Origin: an uncultured Gammaproteobacteria bacterium
GTDB lineage: Bacteria > Patescibacteriota > Microgenomatia > UBA8517
NCBI GenBank assembly: GCA_964427735.1
Contig: CAYRUS010000001.1
Coordinates: forward strand, 356,747 to 420,746
DNA length: 64,000 nt
Reading direction: 5' to 3'
Below, piece by piece: positions 8,134-63,315 of the stretch. Each line of letters starts with the position of its first letter. Within the stretch, counting starts at the first letter, position 1. Below the pieces are notes generated by a model. That model had not been told where the DNA came from. It saw only the letters and a list, made by a program, of their open reading frames with translations, and searched no databases. A program made the translations under genes and the position numbers.

Positions 8134-9262
8134 AGATTTTAGGATTAATTTTAATTAGCTTGTCATCCCCTTGGTTTTTCCTTCCTCTACCATCAGTGTT
8201 ACTTGTTGTTATATATAAAAATCCATCGGGACCAAGTCTTACACCTCTGAGTCTCCCGTATTCTCCATCAAAATGCTTTGTCAGGTTTTCCACGTTACTA
8301 CCGTTTAACTTAGCTTGATACAAAGCACTACCCCTTAAACCTACAAAAAATATACTACCATCAACAAAAGCTGCTCCCGAAGGAGCCCATGTTTCATTTG
8401 GACCGGAATGAATTATTGGCTTGACCATTTCAGGATTTTCTTCATCACCTTGTATTTCTGGCCAACCGTAATTTTTCCCTTTTTCAACCAAATTTAACTC
8501 ATCAAATCCTGATCTAACACCACTTCTACCGTGCTCTGTTGCCCATAATCGTCCTTCTGCATCCCAAGCAAGTCCTTGTACGTTTCTATGACCATATGAA
8601 TAAACCTCATTGCCAAAAGGGTTATCTTCTGGAATGGATCCATCATCCTTTACTCGCAATATTTTGCCATTTAGTGAATCTCTATCTTGAGAAAGTCTTT
8701 CTTGACCAGCATCTCCTGTCCCAATATAAAGATAGCCATCAGAACCAATGTGAATTCTGCCCCCATCGTGTACAGATGAACCTAAAATCCCATCAACTAT
8801 TACATCTCTGTTTGTTAAAGAGTTACCGTCTAACTGATACCTTTCTACTCTGTTTACAATCTTTCCATTTTCTTCACTAGTTAAATATAAGTAAATTAAG
8901 TGATTTTCTTCATAATTCGGATGTAAAGCCATTCCCATCAATCCGCCCTCCCCTATGTGTCTTACACCAGAAACCTCTATTACTGACTTATCTTGTATTT
9001 TTAATAATCTTCCTGGTCTTTCTGTGACCAATATTTCTCCACTTGGCAAAAATTCAACTTCCCATGGGATTTCTAAATTTTCTGCTATTACTTCTATATC
9101 CAATATTTCTTCACTTTCTGGAGTTATTTGAACACCATTGTCCGGAGTATAAACGTTTGATGAAGTACTTGATGAAGATGGGTCTGAAATGTTTCGATAA
9201 TAATAAAATCCACCAGCACCAAGTAGTATAAATACTAGAAATATGATTAAATATTTTTTCAT
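8126..9262 (-). CDS. PQQ-dependent sugar (glucose/sorbosone) dehydrogenase-like beta-propeller protein
   Basis: Signal/TM N-terminus. Motifs GLMGMALHPNY, HDGGRIHIGSDGYLYIGTGD and LGPDGFLYITT resemble the soluble quinoprotein GSDH family. Confidence 0.55.
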   Translation of the reverse strand: MKKYLIIFLVFILLGAGGFYYYRNISDPSSSSTSSNVYTPDNGVQITPESEEILDIEVIAENLEIPWEVEFLPSGEILVTERPGRLLKIQDKSVIEVSGVRHIGEGGLMGMALHPNYEENHLIYLYLTSEENGKIVNRVERYQLDGNSLTNRDVIVDGILGSSVHDGGRIHIGSDGYLYIGTGDAGQERLSQDRDSLNGKILRVKDDGSIPEDNPFGNEVYSYGHRNVQGLAWDAEGRLWATEHGRSGVRSGFDELNLVEKGKNYGWPEIQGDEENPEMVKPIIHSGPNETWAPSGAAFVDGSIFFVGLRGSALYQAKLNGSNVENLTKHFDGEYGRLRGVRLGPDGFLYITTSNTDGRGRKNQGDDKLIKINPKIFN

Positions 9263-9365
9263 AAAACCTTACTAGTACTAATTATATACTACTTTTGGTT
9301 ACTGGTAACATGATACAAAACAATTATCAATTGCTCATAATCATGGGAAAAGTATAAATTCAGCT

Positions 9366-9665
9366 TTAACGCCTATTATCTCTTCTATTGAAGTTACGCC
9401 TTGTATCTCCTCTATCTTCTTTTGGTCTTGCTTCATTAACATTAATGGTTCTGCCACCAAAATCTTTACCATTGAGTGTATCAATAGCTTTTTGTGCTTC
9501 TTCATCATTTTCCATTTCCACAAATCCAAAACCTTTACTTCTACCTGAATCTCTATCTGTGATAATAACACAAGAAATAACTGTTCCTATTTCAGAAAAT
9601 AATTCTTGGAGTTCTGCTTCAGTTGAACTGTATGGGAGTCCTCCTACAAATAATCTTTTAGCCAC
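9366..9665 (-). CDS. RNA-binding protein with RRM domain and Arg-rich tail
   Basis: RNP-2 LFVGGL and RNP-1 KGFGFVEM. C-terminal RD/RR-rich tail. About 255 bp of 5' leader. Confidence 0.85.
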   Translation of the reverse strand: MAKRLFVGGLPYSSTEAELQELFSEIGTVISCVIITDRDSGRSKGFGFVEMENDEEAQKAIDTLNGKDFGGRTINVNEARPKEDRGDTRRNFNRRDNRR

Positions 9666-9921
9666 TAATTCTCACCGCCTCTCATTATTTTTGTCTTTGC
9701 TTTAACAAAGACTTATAACAAACTAATTTCTTTGCCGCATCTAATGGGAAAAAACTCAAGAAGGTTTTTGTCTAATTAAATAAAACAGCTAGAAACTCTA
9801 CACTACCCGAAAGTAGTTTGCTTATTATATCACACTAGTAGCTTAATTCACATAATTTGTAGATTAACCAACATTTCTGGATGTTTTTTTGGAACGTAAA
9901 ATCGTCTAAGATATTAATTAT

Positions 9922-10278
9922 ATGTATAATATTTTTTTATACACCCATATTGTAGGAGCAGGAGTTTTAGCAATATTTATTTGTACTGCAGTATTTGAAA
10001 AAGTTATTCCTCATCAAAAACTTGCTTTCATCATTGCGTATTTAACAATGATCCAGCTAATGAGTGGTTCTATCCTTAGTATTATCACAAATACGTCTTT
10101 ACTTTCCTTTTGTAGCAGAATTGGAATATATATGTTTGTAGTAAGTATGGTGGAAATGTATTTATTTTATAAAACCCAAAAAAACAAATTGGAAAAATTT
10201 CCTACAGCTTATGTTTTATCGTCTATATCGGCGGGGATGCTAATTGTATTTGCAACATTAAGCTCATTTATTTTATAA
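9922..10278 (+). CDS. small integral membrane protein (about 4 TM), hypothetical
   Basis: Hydrophobic segments throughout. No motif recognised. Confidence 0.35.
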   Translation: MYNIFLYTHIVGAGVLAIFICTAVFEKVIPHQKLAFIIAYLTMIQLMSGSILSIITNTSLLSFCSRIGIYMFVVSMVEMYLFYKTQKNKLEKFPTAYVLSSISAGMLIVFATLSSFIL

Positions 10279-36972: not shown

Positions 36973-37830
36973 TTATTCCATTATCACTTTACCGAGTAAA
37001 AGAGCAAGAGGCCATAAAATATATTCACCATCCACCATGATGTAAGAAATCTTACGTAGCTGAACGCTTGTTAGATTATTAACTTTTATTAAATAAATTA
37101 AGCTGTATATTGGGAAAAATAGTAAAACTATCGAATAGAATGGTAAAATTCTTAACCATATAGCTAACGCGACTATTGTCCCTGAGGCAATATTTACTAT
37201 ATGTAAATAGTAAACGGTTTTATGGAGACCGAATACTACAGGTAAAGTCTTTAGTCCATCTTTTTTATCTCCACTAACGTCTTTAATATCAAAAAAGGCA
37301 GAATTAATTATCCACCTTAAAAATACAAAAAATAAAAAAGTTAACACTAACCACCTAAGTGGAAAAATAGAATAATGCAGAGGAACAATAAATCCTAGCA
37401 TAGTCCAAAAAAATGCAACATATAAATTCTTTAAAGCTACAACCTTTTTCATTAAGTATTTTACTTTTAATGAATAAATTATTCCTCCTGCCACTATAAT
37501 TACTGCCAATAAAGCAGCAAAGTAAGTTGTAGTAAACAGCAGTGATATAAATAAAGTTATATAAATAATCATTGTGAATATTTGGATATTCCTTGTTTCA
37601 GAGAGATAAATAGAACGCTCCAAATTGTCTTTGTTTTCTTCGATTGTCTCTAACAAATGATCGTGATTATATACAATCTGAGAGACTAAGTATGCAATGA
37701 TAAAAATCTGCCATTCCCATTCAACATCAAGAAGTATAGTTACAGACCATACAATGGAGGCTGCCCCTAAAGACAATAAATGACCACCATATACAAACTC
37801 ACTTATCAGTATTCTTACCAGTTTTTTCAT
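36973..37830 (-). CDS. UbiA-superfamily aromatic/glyceryl prenyltransferase-like membrane protein
   Basis: 8-9 TM. Second Asp-rich motif DIKDVSGDKKDGLKTLPV is typical of UbiA/DGGGP-synthase-like enzymes. The first motif is degenerate (NHDHLLE). Confidence 0.5.
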   Translation of the reverse strand: MKKLVRILISEFVYGGHLLSLGAASIVWSVTILLDVEWEWQIFIIAYLVSQIVYNHDHLLETIEENKDNLERSIYLSETRNIQIFTMIIYITLFISLLFTTTYFAALLAVIIVAGGIIYSLKVKYLMKKVVALKNLYVAFFWTMLGFIVPLHYSIFPLRWLVLTFLFFVFLRWIINSAFFDIKDVSGDKKDGLKTLPVVFGLHKTVYYLHIVNIASGTIVALAIWLRILPFYSIVLLFFPIYSLIYLIKVNNLTSVQLRKISYIMVDGEYILWPLALLLGKVIME

Positions 37831-37900
37831 CTACTTTGATAATACAAGCTTCTACTCACTAATCCAACTAAATAAATGATGTTACGGCAAAAAGGAAGAT

Positions 37901-38977
37901 TTACATATCTCTTTCCATAACAAAAACTGCTAATTCTCTTAGATTTTTTGCTGCTTTTTTGTTTTTAAAAAAAGTTAAATCTTCATCAAATACTTTTAAT
38001 GCATGATCTTTATACTCCTCTGCCCGTTTTTTTGCATATGCAATACTTCCACAATCATCCAACATTCTCACTACTCTCAACACTTCTTGGAGTGACTTTT
38101 CTTCTCTTTTTTTGTTTAAGACTTTCACAACATAATCCCGATCTCTTCCAGAAGCATTTTTCAAAAAGTGACTCATTATCAAAGTTTTTTTCCCTTCGTA
38201 TATATCATTTGCAAATTCCTTAAGCCCATTAAAATCGCTTGTAATGTCTAATATATCGTCTATTAACTGAAAACATCTCCCTAGGTTAAAACCAAACTCA
38301 GTAATTTTATACAATTGATCTTTGCTTGCCTCTCCGATAATAGACCCAAGTCTCAAAGGACCTGTTATTGAATAATAAGAAGATTTACCATCTGCAATAA
38401 AATACCAATCATTATCAGAAAATGTTTTAATCTTTTCCTGCATTAACTTAATCTCTGATGACTGGCCAATAATAGTTCTAGTAATTATGCTATAAAATTC
38501 ATCAACAACTTTGTCTGCAATTTTTTTATCAAGCTTTTTGTAAATATCAAATATAATGCGCCACATTACAGCATGAAGAGCATCACCGGAATTAATTGCT
38601 TGTTCAGCTCCGTAAATCCTATGAAGCGCAGGTTTACCTCTCCTTTTGACAGAATTGTCCTCAAAATCATCGTGGATAAGAATCCACTCTTCAGATAGCT
38701 GCATTGCTGCTGCTGCCTTTAATGAGTACCTTTTCTTTTTGCCCATAGCTTCAGCAGCTAACATCAACAATGTGGGTCGTAAATATTTGCCCTTTCTTTC
38801 TGGATAATCTCTTGTTATTTTCCAAAAGTATTTCTCATCAGATTTATATTTTCCGTTAATTTTAAAATGATCAGGAAGGTCTGGTGTATATAAATAGGTT
38901 TCTATCTCAGGCCAAATAATATTTTTATAACTAGAAAGGATTACTAATGCGGGATGCGTGTGTTTCTTGTTCCCCAT
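37901..38977 (-). CDS. trans-polyprenyl diphosphate synthase
   Basis: FARM LIHDDFEDNSVKRRGKP and SARM FQLIDDILD. Confidence 0.8.
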   Translation of the reverse strand: MGNKKHTHPALVILSSYKNIIWPEIETYLYTPDLPDHFKINGKYKSDEKYFWKITRDYPERKGKYLRPTLLMLAAEAMGKKKRYSLKAAAAMQLSEEWILIHDDFEDNSVKRRGKPALHRIYGAEQAINSGDALHAVMWRIIFDIYKKLDKKIADKVVDEFYSIITRTIIGQSSEIKLMQEKIKTFSDNDWYFIADGKSSYYSITGPLRLGSIIGEASKDQLYKITEFGFNLGRCFQLIDDILDITSDFNGLKEFANDIYEGKKTLIMSHFLKNASGRDRDYVVKVLNKKREEKSLQEVLRVVRMLDDCGSIAYAKKRAEEYKDHALKVFDEDLTFFKNKKAAKNLRELAVFVMERDM

Positions 38978-39134: not shown

Positions 39135-39608
39135 TTACCTAGTCACGGTAATTGTTGGTGTCAATTCACCAGTAGCACTCGCAACTACACGTCCGTCTGA
39201 ATCAACATAAATTGTATATCCTGTATTTGCATCGGTGCCTGTTGACGGATCTGCAGGAATAGAAGCAATATAAGTTGGTACGATTACTTCTGTACCTGCT
39301 TCGTTCGTAGCAGCTCCTAAGTCAAAACAAGGTGCAGTGTCACCAATACAAGTAGCTGATGAAGGAAAGTTTGTTTCAGTATCATCTCCATCAGTATCAG
39401 GTAAATTACCATCGTGCTCGGCAGCGAATTGATATATAGAACTCGTTATAGAGTGAAGATCAGCTCGACGTTGTTGATCTCTTGCTAAAGCAAATTGTCT
39501 ACCTGGGTTAACTGCTACTACGACTATTGCAGCCAAAATAGCAATAATACCGATAACAACTAATAACTCAATAAGGGTAAAACCTCTTGTGTTTTTATTT
39601 AGTTTCAT
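39135..39608 (-). CDS. type IV (major) pilin with prepilin-peptidase signal
   Basis: Class III signal KNTRG/FTLIELLVVIGIIAILAAIVV with Glu at +5. Ser/Thr/Asp-rich C-terminal half. Own terminator. Confidence 0.8.
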   Translation of the reverse strand: MKLNKNTRGFTLIELLVVIGIIAILAAIVVVAVNPGRQFALARDQQRRADLHSITSSIYQFAAEHDGNLPDTDGDDTETNFPSSATCIGDTAPCFDLGAATNEAGTEVIVPTYIASIPADPSTGTDANTGYTIYVDSDGRVVASATGELTPTITVTR

Positions 39609-42078: not shown

Positions 42079-43434
42079 ATGCCTACACTGCCTAAAACAA
42101 TTTTCATTAAAGGTAACACGATCATAGGTATTCTTATTGGTTTAGGTGTTCTTTCGATTCTTTCCTATACTGTTATTATATTGTCCACTACAACATACCA
42201 ACTGGTTGGTTATACAAGAGCCAGAACAGTTGCAAGAAATATAGCTGTCACTCAAATTGAGATGATCAGAAATATGCCATATGATGAGATTGGAACACAA
42301 GGAGGCATCCCACAAGGGGATTTACTTCAAACCCAAGACATTGTAGAAAATGGTCAAAATTATCAAATTAGAAGAACTATAACTTATGTTGATGATCCAT
42401 TTGACCAACTGACCCCAATTGATACGTTGCCTACTGATTACAAAAGAGTTCGTATCGAAATCTCATGGGAAGGCGTATCAAAATCAAATGCAGCACCAGT
42501 AGTATTAACAACTGATGTGGTTCCAAAAGGAGTTGAATCTACTGAAGGTGGAGGTACATTATCTATTTTGGTTTTTAATTCTCAAGGTTTACCAGTACCT
42601 CAAGCTCAAGTCCATATTGTATCTAATGATCAAACAAACCCAGTCGATTTAACTCAATTTACAAGTGATACAGGACATATAGTTTTACCCGGTACGCCTG
42701 CCTGCCTGGAGTGCTATGAAATTACAGTAACAAAAGATGGGTTTAGTATTGACAAAACTTACTCAAATACAGAAGTTGATACTCCTGATAAACCTCATAT
42801 TAGTGTCATAGAGGGAAACCTGACAGAAACTAGCTTTGCGATCGATAGAGTTTCCTCACTCACTTTAAATACATACGGATCAAGAGAAGACGGCTTTCCT
42901 ATTATGGTAAATGTACCTATTATAGTCAAAGGAGAAAAAACAATTGGGGTAGATGTAGCAGATCAACCTGTTTATAAATTTAGCCAAGAGTTTGTTACAA
43001 ATGAGAATGGAGAATTAACAATTGAAAACCTCGAATGGGACAACTATTACATCTCAGTTCCAGATCAATCTTCTTACTCTATAAGCGGTCTTAGTAAAAC
43101 CATGCCATATTCTATTTTGCCAAACACAGACGACTCTTTGGATATTTCTATATCTTCATTTACACCAAATTCCCTACTCACGGCTTTTGTGGACGAAAAC
43201 AAATCACCGATAGCTTCTGTCTCAGCTATTCTAAAAGATGGCAATGTACCAATTGCAACAATCTCCAGTGGACTAGAAAATGACCCAGACTTTGGACAAG
43301 CGTTCTTTAGTGATCTAGCCCAAAAAACTTATGCTTTGGAAGCAACTGCAGCTGGGTTTATAGATTTTAGCGGAATAGTGAATATATCGGGACAAGTTTA
43401 TGACTTAATACCACTCACAAAAGAAGAGTTGTAA
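42079..43434 (+). CDS. large N-terminally anchored pilus-associated protein (minor-pilin-like, degenerate prepilin motif)
   Basis: N-terminus KGNTIIGILIGLGVL resembles a class III signal but lacks Glu+5. First gene of the divergent module upstream of two prepilin-type genes. Confidence 0.35.
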   Translation: MPTLPKTIFIKGNTIIGILIGLGVLSILSYTVIILSTTTYQLVGYTRARTVARNIAVTQIEMIRNMPYDEIGTQGGIPQGDLLQTQDIVENGQNYQIRRTITYVDDPFDQLTPIDTLPTDYKRVRIEISWEGVSKSNAAPVVLTTDVVPKGVESTEGGGTLSILVFNSQGLPVPQAQVHIVSNDQTNPVDLTQFTSDTGHIVLPGTPACLECYEITVTKDGFSIDKTYSNTEVDTPDKPHISVIEGNLTETSFAIDRVSSLTLNTYGSREDGFPIMVNVPIIVKGEKTIGVDVADQPVYKFSQEFVTNENGELTIENLEWDNYYISVPDQSSYSISGLSKTMPYSILPNTDDSLDISISSFTPNSLLTAFVDENKSPIASVSAILKDGNVPIATISSGLENDPDFGQAFFSDLAQKTYALEATAAGFIDFSGIVNISGQVYDLIPLTKEEL

Positions 43435-43437
43435 ATT

Positions 43438-44052
43438 ATGAAAAACAAGCAAACATATAGTCTAAAAGGTTTTACACTTATAGAAATAATAGTAGCAACC
43501 TCAATTTCTGTAACTCTCCTTGCTGGAGTTTATCTGGTCCAAAGAATCATTGCCGACACACAATCAGTTACTTGGGACAGTACAATAAAAGTTGAAATTG
43601 CAAATAAAGCCACCGCACCAATAATTAAAGAAATTAGAACTATGAGACCAAGCCAAGACGGAAGATATCCACTTGAAACTGCAGAAAGCCATGAAATTGT
43701 ATTCTATTCAGATATAGATTTCGACGAAAGCGTAGAAAGAGTTAGATATGTTCTAGATGGGAATGTTCTTAGAAAAGGTGTTACAGAACCAAGCGGTTCT
43801 CCGATTGGTTATAACCAAGAAGATGAAGAGTTAACTATTATAAGCGACACAATACAAAATGAGTCAAATCCTGTTTTTTATTACTATAATGAAGATTGGC
43901 CCTCAAATAATAACCCTCTAAATTATCCTGCTCCTACTTCAGAAGTTAAAGTTGTTAAAGTCATGCTAAAAATAGGTAGTAGTCTTGAAGATAATCAGCC
44001 TTATGAGGTTGAAGCTTTTACTAATATTAGAATGTTGAAAGAAAATCTCTAA
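43438..44052 (+). CDS. prepilin-type N-terminal cleavage/methylation domain protein (minor pilin/pseudopilin)
   Basis: LKG/FTLIEIIVATSISV canonical motif. Coupled 3 nt after the upstream gene. Confidence 0.7.
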   Translation: MKNKQTYSLKGFTLIEIIVATSISVTLLAGVYLVQRIIADTQSVTWDSTIKVEIANKATAPIIKEIRTMRPSQDGRYPLETAESHEIVFYSDIDFDESVERVRYVLDGNVLRKGVTEPSGSPIGYNQEDEELTIISDTIQNESNPVFYYYNEDWPSNNNPLNYPAPTSEVKVVKVMLKIGSSLEDNQPYEVEAFTNIRMLKENL

Positions 44053-44054
44053 AT

Positions 44055-45452
44055 ATGAAAAAAGAAGCAGGTTCAGTTACGCCAGCCTTGTTAGTTATTA
44101 TTGGCACGATGGTTGTTGTTATTTATGGTCTTTTGTTGATTTTAGCAATGCAGTTAAATTATTCCCACAGACAAATTGCTTCTGAAGAGGCTCTTCATAT
44201 TGCTGAAGCAGGTATCAATTATTACAGATGGCATCTTGCTCATGATCCAAATGATTACACAGATGGAACTGGTAATCCAGGTCCTTATGTCCGCGAATAT
44301 CACGACCCTGAAGGAGGTTTAGTAGGATACTATGAATTAGAGATCACACCACCCGAATCCGGATCTTCAATTGTTACATTAAAGTCGACAGGTTGGACAA
44401 ATCAATTCCCTTCAGTAAAGCGTACAATAACTGCAAAATACGGAAAACCTTCATTAGCGAGATTTTCTTTCTTATCAAATGCAAGCAGCTGGTATGGTGA
44501 AGGTATAACAGTAAATGGACAAATACACTCAAATAACGGAATAAGGATGGACGGCATCAACACTTCCTCAACTACAAGTGCTAAAGACACTTATATGTGT
44601 GGATCAGAAACAGGGTGTCATCCTCCAGATAACAGACCTGGGGTTTGGGGATTAGGACCAAATTATAATCTTTGGGAATTTCCTGTTCCATCCATTGATT
44701 TTGATTCTATATCATTTGATTTCGCCCAGATGAGAGCAGAAGCTCAAGCTAATGGATTGTATTTGAATGATTCAAAGGCAGAAGGTTATCATCTAGTATT
44801 TAATTCAAATGGAACTTTTGATGTATACAAAGTTAGAAATACCGACTTTATTAGAGGTTATAGTGTTCCTGGACAAGGATTAGGACAAGAAGGTCAAGGA
44901 GGATGTAGAAGATTATTCCAAATAATTACAAAAGAAGATCATGTCGCTACTTATATTGTTGATGATAATCCAATCGTTTTTATTGAAGATCACGTGTGGG
45001 TAGAAGGCACGGTAAAAGGAAGACTAACATTAACTGCTGCCACGTTCCCAATTGCTTCCAGTGATGTAGATATTTGGATAAAAAACAGCATTAAATACAC
45101 CAATTATGACGGTAGTGATATATTAGGGCTAATATCCCAAAATAATATTTACTTTGTTCGCGATGTGCCTGAAAATTTCCAAGTTGATGCAGTTTTAATT
45201 GCCAAAAATGGAAAAATTCTTAGACATGCTTATTATAGTGGTTGTGGAGGTACATTCGGGGGAATTAAGCAAAATCTAACGATCAATGGTTCCTTGATAT
45301 CATTTCATAAATCATACTGGAATTTTGGTGATCCTCTAGTATCTGGGTTTATTTCAAGAACTATAAATTACGATGGTAATGCGCTATATAACCCCCCACC
45401 TTATTTCCCTACATCTGGAGAGTTTGAGTTTATATCTTGGAAAGAAGAATAG
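44055..45452 (+). CDS. PilX-like pilus assembly/minor pilin protein
   Basis: N-terminal hydrophobic helix LLVIIGTMVVVIYGLLLILA typical of PilX-N-like proteins. 465 aa. Coupled to the upstream pseudopilin gene. Confidence 0.4.
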   Translation: MKKEAGSVTPALLVIIGTMVVVIYGLLLILAMQLNYSHRQIASEEALHIAEAGINYYRWHLAHDPNDYTDGTGNPGPYVREYHDPEGGLVGYYELEITPPESGSSIVTLKSTGWTNQFPSVKRTITAKYGKPSLARFSFLSNASSWYGEGITVNGQIHSNNGIRMDGINTSSTTSAKDTYMCGSETGCHPPDNRPGVWGLGPNYNLWEFPVPSIDFDSISFDFAQMRAEAQANGLYLNDSKAEGYHLVFNSNGTFDVYKVRNTDFIRGYSVPGQGLGQEGQGGCRRLFQIITKEDHVATYIVDDNPIVFIEDHVWVEGTVKGRLTLTAATFPIASSDVDIWIKNSIKYTNYDGSDILGLISQNNIYFVRDVPENFQVDAVLIAKNGKILRHAYYSGCGGTFGGIKQNLTINGSLISFHKSYWNFGDPLVSGFISRTINYDGNALYNPPPYFPTSGEFEFISWKEE

Positions 45453-49870: not shown

Positions 49871-49976
49871 AGTTAATCACCTCCTTTCCCACTACTCATA
49901 TTAGAACAAGTTCTTTAGAAGTTGTCAAGTCTATAGGACAATTATTTGTGAAGGAAGATAATAATAGTGAATTTTA

Positions 49977-50358
49977 TAGCTGGAGGCTAGTAAGCCAGGT
50001 TCTGTTTACTACTCTCAAATAAAGAAAGTAGCTGACAATCATCTATCTTTGCCCTTCCTTGAAACGTATCCTATTGGATTCGGGAAGACATCCTTATAAC
50101 GTCCCGGTCGAAGGTTGCTGCGGAGGGGATTGCCCGTTTCACTCGCCTTACTTCATCTAAAAGTAAAGAGACTCGTCTCTGTTGCTCTCAAAAGTGGTTA
50201 ATTCCACTTCTGTGTCACTTTTAAAGTGACCACCAGCCCTTCATTTCAATTAGTATTTATTACTATTGAAATTTCAGGTCACCGATTGCCCGGCGTCTCC
50301 TGTCTTCTGCAGCCTGGACTTTCCTCTACAATAAGTAGCGATTGTCCCGCCTCCAGCG
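49977..50358 (-). ncRNA. rnpB: RNase P RNA, bacterial type A
   Basis: Minus-strand read: P1 GCUGGAGGC/GCCUCCAGC. P2 GACAAUC/GAUUGUC. P4 5' strand GAGGAAAGUCCAGGCUGC. GCAGCAAC...UUAUAAGGAUG (P15-P18 region). P4 3' strand ACAGAACCUGGCUUAC. Spurious + strand ORFs overlap it. Confidence 0.8.
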
Positions 50359-50425: not shown

Positions 50426-50773
50426 TTAAAAAGTATAATTACTCAACCAAATCACATAATCCAAACCATCCACAAATCCGTTGCCATCATAGTCTCCTTT
50501 TGTTCCTGAAGCTACCTGTTTATTGTAATTTAAAAGCCAAATTACATAATCCAAGCCATCGACTTTACCATCTTGATTTGCATCACCAGGTTTTGGATTA
50601 TTGGGGTTTGTCACTGGCGGAGTAATGGGTGTATCATGACTTGCCTTTGAGAGCCTAAAATCCTTTGGATCCAGGACATAAAATACACTTACAGGTATTG
50701 TTAGCAATGTTAAAACTAGTAAAGCCAAACTAATTTTGTTACTGAAATTTCGATTAATATATCTTCCAAACAT
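50426..50773 (-). CDS. membrane-anchored mini-protein with a dockerin-like double Ca-binding repeat
   Basis: N-terminal TM. Pro-rich linker. Two repeats, DANQDGKVDGLDYVIWLLNY and DYDGNGFVDGLDYVIWLSNY, match the dockerin type I pattern. Confidence 0.55.
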   Translation of the reverse strand: MFGRYINRNFSNKISLALLVLTLLTIPVSVFYVLDPKDFRLSKASHDTPITPPVTNPNNPKPGDANQDGKVDGLDYVIWLLNYNKQVASGTKGDYDGNGFVDGLDYVIWLSNYTF

Positions 50774-50814
50774 TAAATTTTTGTTAAGCTATTTTTATGG
50801 TAGATTAAAGCAAA

Positions 50815-51972
50815 GTGGTTAGTCAAATAAAATTATCCAAAAATAACGGCCTATTTATTAAAACTCTTTGTCTTGGATTTTTACTTTTACCATTTATATA
50901 TTATCCACCACTATATTTGCCATACGAAATCCCGCGAGTACTGTTTGTTTTGCTTTGGGTAGAATTAATGATAGTTATTTTCTTGATAACAAGAAGTCAA
51001 GCTAAAATAAAAGTTTCTAGGCAATCAAAACTCTCAGTTTTTCTCTTATTTGTTGCCTTTATAGGCTCTTTTTTGGGATCAAATTTACAAAAAAGCATAA
51101 TTGGTAATTTTTATCGTTTAGACGGGTTAATAACTTTAATACATCTAGTGGTTTTTTCCTTAATAGTTTCAAACTTATGGCAAAAAAAGTATAAACAAGC
51201 ATTATACAAAACTTTTTTGATTGCCAATACTGTTTTATCATTTTTTGTGATTTTAAGTGCGATTCAACTTGTGATTGCCAATCATATGCAAAATGGCATT
51301 AATATCTTTTTTGGACAACCAAATTTTTTGGCAGGATATATTTTAATTACAATCCCTTTTTCAGCTTTTTTATATAAAGACAACCTAAAAAAACTACTAA
51401 TAGTTATAATCCCCCAATCTTTGGCAATAATCTCTACTCATTCTAGAGCTAGTATTATTCTACTCGTTATTTTTTTATGTTTATTTTTTGTCTACAAATC
51501 TCGTGATAAGTATTTAAAATACCTTGGATTATTTTTTGTTTTTACAAGTATCTTAGTATCTGCTTTTTATCTAAAACATTCCCAAAGTCCTTTGTTTGTT
51601 GCTGAGGGAAGAGAACGAATCTTTAAAAAAGGACTACTCGCGTTCCAACAAAAACCTTTATTGGGATGGGGTTGGGCAAACTTTGACCATGCATTTGATA
51701 ACACCGTGTGGCCTTTTAAATTAAACAATGATGTTTATGTAGACAAAGCCCATTCACATTTTTTGGAGTATCTTGTAACTACCGGATTTATTGGTTTTTT
51801 AGCTTACATTCTTCTCATATCGTTTACAATACTTACCTTAAAAAGGAATAAAGAATTTGGATTATTGATTGTTTTAATGCTTTATATAATTCATTCACAA
51901 ACTAATGTGGTTTCAATAGCAGAAGATATAATATTTTGGTTTATTGTAGGTGTGTCAGGGAATAAAACTTAA
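50815..51972 (+). CDS. O-antigen ligase / O-oligosaccharyltransferase family (Wzy_C) membrane protein
   Basis: About 10-12 TM. Periplasmic-loop motif KAHSHFLEYLVTTGFIGF matches the WaaL/PglL/TfpO pattern. Confidence 0.6.
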   Translation: MVSQIKLSKNNGLFIKTLCLGFLLLPFIYYPPLYLPYEIPRVLFVLLWVELMIVIFLITRSQAKIKVSRQSKLSVFLLFVAFIGSFLGSNLQKSIIGNFYRLDGLITLIHLVVFSLIVSNLWQKKYKQALYKTFLIANTVLSFFVILSAIQLVIANHMQNGINIFFGQPNFLAGYILITIPFSAFLYKDNLKKLLIVIIPQSLAIISTHSRASIILLVIFLCLFFVYKSRDKYLKYLGLFFVFTSILVSAFYLKHSQSPLFVAEGRERIFKKGLLAFQQKPLLGWGWANFDHAFDNTVWPFKLNNDVYVDKAHSHFLEYLVTTGFIGFLAYILLISFTILTLKRNKEFGLLIVLMLYIIHSQTNVVSIAEDIIFWFIVGVSGNKT

Positions 51973-63225: not shown

Positions 63226-63244
63226 TTGTAAGTATCTTCTTGGG

Positions 63245-63315
63245 TCGGGGTACCAGGAATCGAACCTGGACCAGACGGCCCCCAGCCGCCTATTCTGCCA
63301 CTAAACTATACCCCG
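63245..63315 (-). tRNA. tRNA-Pro (anticodon GGG)
   Basis: Minus strand: CGGGGUA UA GUUU AGUGGCA GAAU A GGCGG CUGGGGG CCGUC UGGU CCAGG UUCGAUU CCUGG UACCCCG A. Cloverleaf with U33, anticodon GGG, G37, T-loop UUCGAUU, discriminator A. 3' CCA not encoded (CCC follows). Confidence 0.85.

Follow-up and report, generated by a model that had tools for sequence, protein, structure and literature searches.

A conserved pairing of a Wzy_C-family membrane protein with leader-bearing surface proteins in Microgenomates, with a dockerin mini-protein among its members

The gene for an O-linking oligosaccharyltransferase (O-OTase) of the PglL type adjoins an acceptor gene in 21 of 31 species, and a motif termed PglL_A serves as the criterion that marks the pilin-associated PglL enzymes (PMC3643930). 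PglL favours disordered regions rich in Ala and Pro (PMC12645811). A set of Arg and His residues is common to PglL and the ligase WaaL, with H338 and R288 of EcWaaL corresponding to H349 and R298 of NmPglL (PMC3643930), while the first conserved Arg is R215 in EcWaaL, R224 in NmPglL and approximately R191 in CmWaaL (PMC3643930, PMC12800693). The Arg of WaaL is a proposed pyrophosphate binder and the His a proposed catalytic residue (PMC12800693). Here we analyse a pair of divergent genes, one for a mini-protein of 115 amino acids (aa) and one for a membrane protein of the Wzy_C family, in a stretch of 64,000 nucleotides (nt) that we call the window (GenBank assembly GCA_964427735.1, contig CAYRUS010000001.1, positions 356,747 to 420,746). 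Its source was deposited as an uncultured Gammaproteobacteria bacterium and is placed by GTDB in the Microgenomatia (Patescibacteriota; UBA8517).

The Wzy_C superfamily and the dockerin, to which the components of this pair belong, are known kinds. By contrast with these, the leader family described below appears to be undescribed, as do its pairing, throughout the lineage, with a distinct clade of Wzy_C proteins and the new view of the mini-protein that follows from it. In the literature that we searched we found no report joining organisms of the Candidate Phyla Radiation (CPR) with O-antigen-ligase-family proteins.

A two-gene unit conserved across Microgenomates

The mini-protein gene and the Wzy_C gene lie on opposite strands and are a two-gene unit conserved across Microgenomates. 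In the window the pair comprises the following features.

50426-50773, minus strand: open reading frame (ORF) of the mini-protein (115 aa), in which a transmembrane (TM) segment and a Pro/Thr stretch precede a double dockerin
50639..50773, minus strand: leader of the mini-protein, aa 1-45, from the match to a leader hidden Markov model (HMM) and column conservation in 37 sequences
50591..50638, minus strand: juxtamembrane Pro/Thr motif, aa 46-61, SHDTPITPPVTNPNNP, from the consensus of 37 sequences; putative acceptor
50426..50590, minus strand: double dockerin, aa 62-115, and stop codon, from Pfam Dockerin_1, AlphaFold2 (AF2) and Foldseek
50774..50814, no strand: divergent intergenic spacer of 41 nt, read from the sequence
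50815..51972, plus strand: Wzy_C-family protein with 12 TM helices and a GT-C fold, WaaL/PglL-like, 385 aa, GTG start, from Pfam, AF2 and Foldseek

When the upstream neighbours of Wzy_C were tabulated at 71 genome loci, most proved to be a divergent ORF whose product has a TM helix at its N-terminus and a segment strongly enriched in Pro, Thr and Ser. At syntenic loci the gene facing away from Wzy_C encodes a secreted protein that combines a TM anchor with a stretch of the 'PITPP' type, and it is the C-terminal domain that differs from locus to locus. The gap between neighbour and Wzy_C at orthologous loci is typically 1-80 nt. A promoter and terminator scan of the divergent spacer region gave nothing above shuffled expectation.

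The shared part of these neighbours is a leader, equivalent to about the first 60 residues of the mini-protein, with the consensus W-x-x-L-x-x-S-Q-K, a TM helix containing Pro, 14 residues, [S/P]-[R/K]-A, and P-[IV]-T-P-P-[IV]-T-P-P. The first element lies in the cytoplasmic n-region and the TM helix is Leu-rich. Among 37 sequences the Pro of the helix is kept in 32, followed by a spacer of exactly 14 residues to the next motif, and the Ala of [S/P]-[R/K]-A is kept in 33; with counts on the same basis, the Pro/Thr consensus reads P28-[IV]-T29-P20-P32-[IV]-T23-P19-P30. None of the Pfam and NCBIfam models covers the leader region.

A leader HMM was built from 30 sequences, the mini-protein among them, and searched against all ORFs that encode 60 aa or more in the window and 72 loci (1.18 Mb in total). 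The mini-protein scores 67.1 bits (E 1.7e-19), a high value that is expected because it was one of the training sequences, and it is the sole match in the window. Across the 1.18 Mb there are about 45 matching ORFs. Each lies 3.1 kb or less from Wzy_C, most of them in the adjacent divergent position, and there is none farther off in about 0.76 Mb. Under a strict definition of pairing (a leader ORF that is divergent and at most 400 nt from Wzy_C), 33 of 50 evaluable orthologue loci carry the pair, and about five more of the 50 have a variant leader ORF or one up to 1 kb away.

Since the leader HMM had been trained on Wzy_C neighbours, we tested it on held-out data: eight more homologues found in JGI and Logan assemblies (154 kb), none a duplicate of an earlier locus. 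All eight have exactly one leader-HMM match, and it always flanks Wzy_C: six lie divergently upstream, one lies one gene further upstream and one is convergent and downstream. In a neighbour-joining tree of Wzy_C the neighbour is present in nearly all members of the core clade, and the pairing persists over deep divergence, down to a Wzy_C identity of 26-30%.

The pair occurs among type IV pilus (T4P), perM and miaA genes, beside rplKAJ-nusG, or beside groEL or glycolysis genes. Clustering of all neighbours revealed no third conserved gene family, any other family being present in 8 of 57 neighbourhoods at most; the minor recurring neighbours (rplK/A/J-nusG, thioredoxin/TrxB and RimK) were judged to reflect synteny, not function. 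The lack of a third family and the differing contexts together imply that these two genes move as one unit. Fifteen metagenome loci that encode Laminin_G cargo without a leader served as a negative control, and none has Wzy_C within 6 kb. An alignment scan of metagenomes with the Laminin_G cargo recovered two leader loci, which probably derive from the same organisms as our loci L021 and L023. A protein database search with a profile of 25 leader sequences returned one fragment (P0126) and hence offers no census of the family.

The mini-protein, its relatives and the enzyme

An earlier note on this DNA had described the 115-aa protein as a TM anchor, a Pro-rich linker and a double dockerin, and the analysis confirms that description. 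Pfam Dockerin_1 (PF00404) matches residues 62-108 at 27.3 bits (cutoff 22.9), and both Ca-loop repeats can be read in the sequence, DANQDGKVDGLD and DYDGNGFVDGLD. The AF2 model is confident over the dockerin half only (predicted local distance difference test, pLDDT, 87-91), and all 18 of its Foldseek matches in the PDB are dockerins, the best being 2y3n_B with a root-mean-square deviation of 1.4 Å over 52 columns. The protein combines the marks of a dockerin (a Pfam score over the cutoff, two loop-helix repeats that bind Ca, and the dockerin fold) with a Pro-rich stretch, TPITPPVTNPNNPKP, and an N-terminal hydrophobic helix. Its leader begins with a short cytoplasmic n-region (..FSNK) and continues with the TM helix ISLALLVLTLLTIPVSVFYVL, which has the conserved Pro; an S-K-A motif follows 14 residues past that Pro. 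The whole fits the family pattern as FSNK ... TIP ... SKA ... TPITPPVT.

The cargo carried behind the leader varies widely. It is a dockerin in 8 of 56 leader proteins. Nine of the 56 have the sequence motif of Laminin_G (6 of 41 match Pfam Laminin_G_3), and a custom HMM places an Ig-like domain at the C-terminus of 20 of the 56; the He_PIG identity of this domain is tentative, with only 3 of 41 reaching Pfam He_PIG. Other members have an S8 peptidase, beta-helix, PKD or fn3 cargo, and some proteins of 78-137 aa consist of the leader and a Pro/Thr tail with nothing more. The combination seen in the window recurs independently in an unrelated Roizmanbacteria genome (L015), whose own mini-protein is a leader, a Pro/Thr stretch and a double dockerin. 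With the cargo varying in this way, what stays constant beside Wzy_C, and is presumably its functional partner, is the membrane anchor with its juxtamembrane Thr-Pro motif. The mini-protein is the minimal dockerin-bearing member, the smallest that bears a cargo, of a modular surface-protein family.

That no cohesin partner is encoded in the window had also been noted, and Pfam-type scans of every window ORF of at least 100 aa bear this out. Elsewhere in Microgenomates cohesins do occur: 2 of 41 leader proteins scanned against Pfam have one, each as cohesin plus dockerin in a single chain, and a third locus encodes a separate cohesin protein.

L031 1835-3427, minus strand: leader protein with cohesin and dockerin in one chain
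L054 6993-7838, minus strand: leader protein with cohesin and dockerin in one chain
L099 417-1073, minus strand: separate cohesin protein of 218 aa, 9 kb from Wzy_C

Two metagenome proteins of 97-103 aa (P0003 and P0004) have a signal peptide and a double dockerin of the KPGDANxDGKVDGLDYVIWL type, without the leader of the mini-protein family. In the Saccharibacteria literature, a dockerin is named only as an essential envelope protein.

The earlier note's assignment of the divergent gene to the Wzy_C/WaaL/PglL family stands as well. Wzy_C (PF04932) matches residues 199-332 at 65.4 bits (cutoff 31.7), and the motif KAHSHFLEYLVTTGFIGF is present, its His313 being invariant in 30 of 30 homologues. 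The AF2 model is confident (pLDDT 87.9, predicted TM-score 0.88) and has 12 long helices. Its best Foldseek match is WaaL (7tpg_B, TM-score 0.62), with the SEDS proteins RodA and FtsW next, and the sole match in a PDB sequence search is Cupriavidus metallidurans WaaL (CmWaaL, 7TPG/7TPJ; E 2.4e-4). R268 is conserved in 30 of 30 homologues and R266 in 29 of 30, and R266/R268 and H313 align with R265 and H313 of CmWaaL. This mapping to WaaL depends on CmWaaL because E. coli K-12 WaaL gave no meaningful alignment with the family profile (hhalign probability 0.3%). The conserved set comprises R266/R268, P281xxG284xG286, D310-K-A-H313, E318, H360 and E370, and the model places all of these motifs on extracytoplasmic loops. 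Domain score, 12-TM WaaL-like fold and conserved outer His and Arg together place the enzyme in the Wzy_C superfamily. No NCBIfam equivalog covers it. Homologues number in the hundreds at 35-44% identity, and their named hosts (Woese-, Roizman-, Gottesman-, Collier-, Blackburn- and Levybacteria) are all CPR/Microgenomates.

Proposed function and rival explanations

We tentatively favour a dedicated enzyme-acceptor pair, in which a WaaL/PglL-like enzyme would move a lipid-linked glycan to Thr residues in the juxtamembrane Pro/Thr stalk of its neighbour. The mini-protein would enter the membrane through Sec by its leader, with a cytoplasmic N-terminus and one TM helix, so that the P-I-T-P-P-V-T motif would sit directly on the outer side of the membrane, with the dockerin farther out. 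The enzyme, with its invariant Arg/His site facing outward, would bind a polyprenyl-diphosphate-linked glycan, the predicted donor, and its predicted transferase activity would pass the glycan to Thr hydroxyls of the stalk, so that a peptide of the TPITPPVTNPNNPK type within the Pro/Thr motif is the predicted glycan-bearing peptide. The TM helix of the leader may act as a membrane-embedded handle, comparable to the lipid A-core for WaaL and the N-terminal helix of the pilin for PglL/TfpO. The glycosylated stalk would then display the cargo, here a dockerin that may bind a cohesin-bearing partner encoded outside the window.

Several observations weigh against this proposal. Some Wzy_C genes, mostly on outlying branches of the tree, have no leader neighbour, and at the closest syntenic Woesebacteria locus (L003) the RNase P RNA gene rnpB (9641-10007) adjoins Wzy_C and the leader gene is genuinely absent. 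The two genes of the pair are divergent and not co-transcribed. The earlier note had advised a search for glycan-assembly genes; in the 64-kb window, the scope that was searched, no initiating transferase, flippase or glycosyltransferase was found, and no glycan-assembly gene is conserved near the pair in 57+8 loci. The closest solved structure to the enzyme is WaaL, a lipid-acceptor ligase and not a protein O-OTase. PglL_A (PF15864) is absent, a Pfam scan to E 0.1 having returned Wzy_C alone, and TIGR03097, the closest NCBIfam model, reaches 32.6 bits, far under its cutoff of 188.1. R211 of the enzyme aligns near R191 of CmWaaL in an approximate alignment, but this column is Trp in 15 and Arg in 6 of 30 homologues; the Trp found in half of the family may point to a different lipid-linked donor or binding mode. 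In other monoderms, Pro/Thr linkers are glycosylated by GT39/PMT-type enzymes (PMC6151902). Finally, the S-[RK]-A motif may be cleaved by signal peptidase, and if so, the idea of a membrane handle is weakened.

The earlier note had suggested a surface or pilin glycosylation module. That the two genes form one module agrees with the conserved pairing and its recurrence at all held-out loci; the pilin part is not supported. The pilin in question is the following.

39135-39608, minus strand: major type IV pilin, with a G|FTLIE signal

We consider it improbable that the enzyme is an O-OTase of the PglL/TfpO kind that acts mainly on this pilin. In favour of the idea, the C-terminal half of the pilin is Ser/Thr-rich, as the note had said (27% Ser+Thr, against 10% in the N-terminal half and a 12% background), and T4P cluster and Wzy_C share one synteny block. 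General O-OTases, moreover, modify pilins irrespective of gene position (PMC3643930). But the ligase gene lies 11.2 kb from the pilin, close to the 11 kb first given, and PilM/N/O, PilC, PilB, an MscS-like gene and rnpB intervene. The adjacency to a pilin acceptor typical of PglL/TfpO is replaced by a conserved adjacency to a TM-anchored protein that is not a pilin. The Woesebacteria-type synteny block to which the window belongs (L003, L009, L014, L092-L094, L098) is the only setting where T4P genes lie within 10 kb of a Wzy_C orthologue; most other loci have none in that distance, and the leader-bearing neighbour persists there. The lack of PglL_A also tells against a pilin substrate. The link of the enzyme to the pilin is weak, and the Pro/Thr motif, previously seen only as a 'linker', marks the divergent neighbour as the likelier acceptor, although the pilin may be modified in addition. 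The enzyme is most likely one that glycosylates surface proteins and has an acceptor of its own, rather than part of a pilin-glycosylation system.

A stronger rival, though on the whole an unlikely one, makes Wzy_C a polymerase or ligase for an envelope glycopolymer (Wzy- or WaaL-like) that acts on a lipid or cell-wall acceptor, with the leader protein co-regulated and not a substrate; the latter might bind the polymer or be embedded in it. WaaL as sole solved sequence relative and best fold match fits this explanation, as do the missing PglL_A motif and the Wzy_C genes that stand without a leader gene in L003 and on outlying branches. In L097 a glycopolymer-ligase gene of the LytR_cpsA_psr (LCP) type (8906-10000, plus strand) abuts the Wzy_C orthologue, the leader protein being convergent and downstream there, and many cargo domains are of carbohydrate-binding types, for example Laminin_G and dockerin. 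However, a polysaccharide cluster of the kind that marks a Wzy polymerase, with Wzx, Wzz and glycosyltransferase genes, was not found in the window, and genes of this kind are not conserved nearby in the 57+8 loci. Genes for lipopolysaccharide (LPS) or its core (waa) are likewise absent from the window and recur at none of these loci, and the general view of CPR organisms is that they are monoderms and have no lipid A. A glycopolymer enzyme would also leave unexplained why the sole conserved partner is a TM anchor with a Thr-Pro motif, even where no cargo is attached.

The leader could instead be a specialised sorting signal peptide, and the Wzy_C-like protein a non-glycosylating sorting or anchoring factor, in the manner of sortase-type pairs. 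We give this little credence. The leader does resemble an extended signal peptide in its conserved n-region, its h-region with Pro, its AXA-like S-R-A and its fixed spacing, and TIGR03097, the best NCBIfam match, is an exosortase-associated ligase family tied to a protein-sorting signal; yet that match is far under cutoff, and the conserved Arg/His correspond to the site of WaaL for undecaprenyl diphosphate (Und-PP)-linked glycan (PMC12800693). The Wzy_C family, for its part, has no known activity other than on glycans. Chance adjacency of two unrelated genes is effectively refuted by a pairing that is kept at such low Wzy_C identity, in several contexts and in each held-out case.

An extension of the enzyme-acceptor proposal, possible but rather doubtful, would make the leader an undescribed acceptor and sorting signal in one and Wzy_C the founder of a fifth, monoderm/CPR class of O-OTase that makes a protein-anchored 'O-antigen', with the stalk presenting swappable adhesion modules. 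If true, this 'O-antigen' would be a functional counterpart of the LPS O-antigen in cells without lipid A, and the swappable modules (dockerin, cohesin, Ig-like, Laminin_G) would let episymbionts attach to hosts or to each other.

Genomic context, significance and comparison with known systems

The remaining gene content of the window is of a housekeeping kind: PBP1, BipA, aminoacyl-tRNA synthetases, RelA, RecJ, SecDF, MiaA, RNase Y, RecX, RecA and RuvB, together with the T4P cluster. The order PilB, MscS-like, rnpB, the slot of the leader gene, Wzy_C, PerM, MiaA, ..., RecA is common to several Woesebacteria-type loci. A seemingly empty gap of 555 nt upstream of the mini-protein, between its gene and the MscS-like gene, holds the RNase P RNA gene and does not belong to the module:

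49975-50357, minus strand: bacterial class A RNase P RNA gene (rnpB), full-length, 84.7 bits, E 1.9e-25, below the Rfam gathering score of 100

L003 and L093 have this gene in the same position, with 101.4 and 88.2 bits. The only tRNA gene of the window is that for tRNA-Pro(GGG) (63243-63315, minus strand).

Directly downstream of the major pilin gene are genes for a UbiA-family prenyltransferase and a polyprenyl synthetase (36973-38977, minus strand); in L096 a UbiA gene adjoins a Glycos_transf_4 (MraY/WecA-family) gene. Quinones are not expected in this organism, and these genes may be linked to the synthesis of a lipid carrier or of lipids. Within the T4P cluster, three genes at 42079-45452 (plus strand) encode a CarboxypepD_reg-domain protein of 451 aa, an N_methyl pseudopilin of 204 aa and a protein of 465 aa without a Pfam match. 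This trio is conserved along with the cluster in L003, L014, L092-L094 and L098.

To our knowledge there is almost no experimental knowledge of the cell surface of Microgenomates or other CPR organisms, which probably live in attachment to other cells. The pair provides a concrete hypothesis for how surface proteins could be decorated and displayed in CPR cells, and one that is amenable to expression in E. coli. It also places the mini-protein within a modular family that holds cohesin-dockerin chains. Should the enzyme be an O-OTase with a Thr-Pro sequon, O-OTase biology would reach past Gram-negative bacteria, and glycoconjugate engineering would gain a new enzyme with an acceptor tag of 78-115 aa.

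Compared with the PglL, TfpO (PilO), PglS and TfpM families, the enzyme described here likewise combines a Wzy_C domain with conserved Arg and His residues on the outer face (periplasmic in those families), and its gene likewise stands beside that for a protein with an N-terminal TM anchor (PMC3643930). The putative acceptor hydroxyl again falls within a Pro-rich disordered stretch (PMC12645811). Unlike in those systems, the neighbour is not a pilin and has no G|FxxxE, the enzyme has no PglL_A, the motif is based on Thr-Pro and not on Ser/Ala, and the genes are divergent rather than co-transcribed. All four described families are Gram-negative, whereas the host here is a CPR organism and a presumed monoderm.

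WaaL of C. metallidurans (7TPG/7TPJ) shares with the enzyme the Arg and His of the Und-PP site, which align, and gives the best fold match. The identity is about 12%, however, the column that aligns approximately with R191 is not conserved, LPS core genes are lacking nearby in the window, and the conserved genomic partner is a protein instead of the lipid A-core. The system of TIGR03097 (PEP_O_lig_1) and PEP-CTERM resembles the pair in that a Wzy_C-type enzyme is tied to secreted proteins with a short signal and variable cargo. There the signal is C-terminal and here it is N-terminal; no exosortase was seen in any locus, and the score against this model is well short of 188.

The ligases for O-glycosylation of Gram-positive S-layers (WsaB/WsfB type) lie in large glycan-biosynthesis (slg) clusters, unlike the pair, which is unaccompanied by glycan genes. 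They resemble it as Wzy_C enzymes of monoderms with a proposed transfer of lipid-linked glycan to a surface protein encoded nearby. Cellulosomal dockerin-cohesin systems (Clostridia, Bacteroides cellulosolvens) differ in their setting, since the window has no cellulase or scaffoldin context and no cohesin, and the mini-protein has no catalytic cargo. The Pro/Thr linkers of cellulosomes are glycosylated. The mini-protein shares with the cellulosomal proteins the double Ca-loop dockerin fold and a Pro/Thr linker ahead of the module, and its relatives in L031 and L054 add the combination of cohesin with dockerin.

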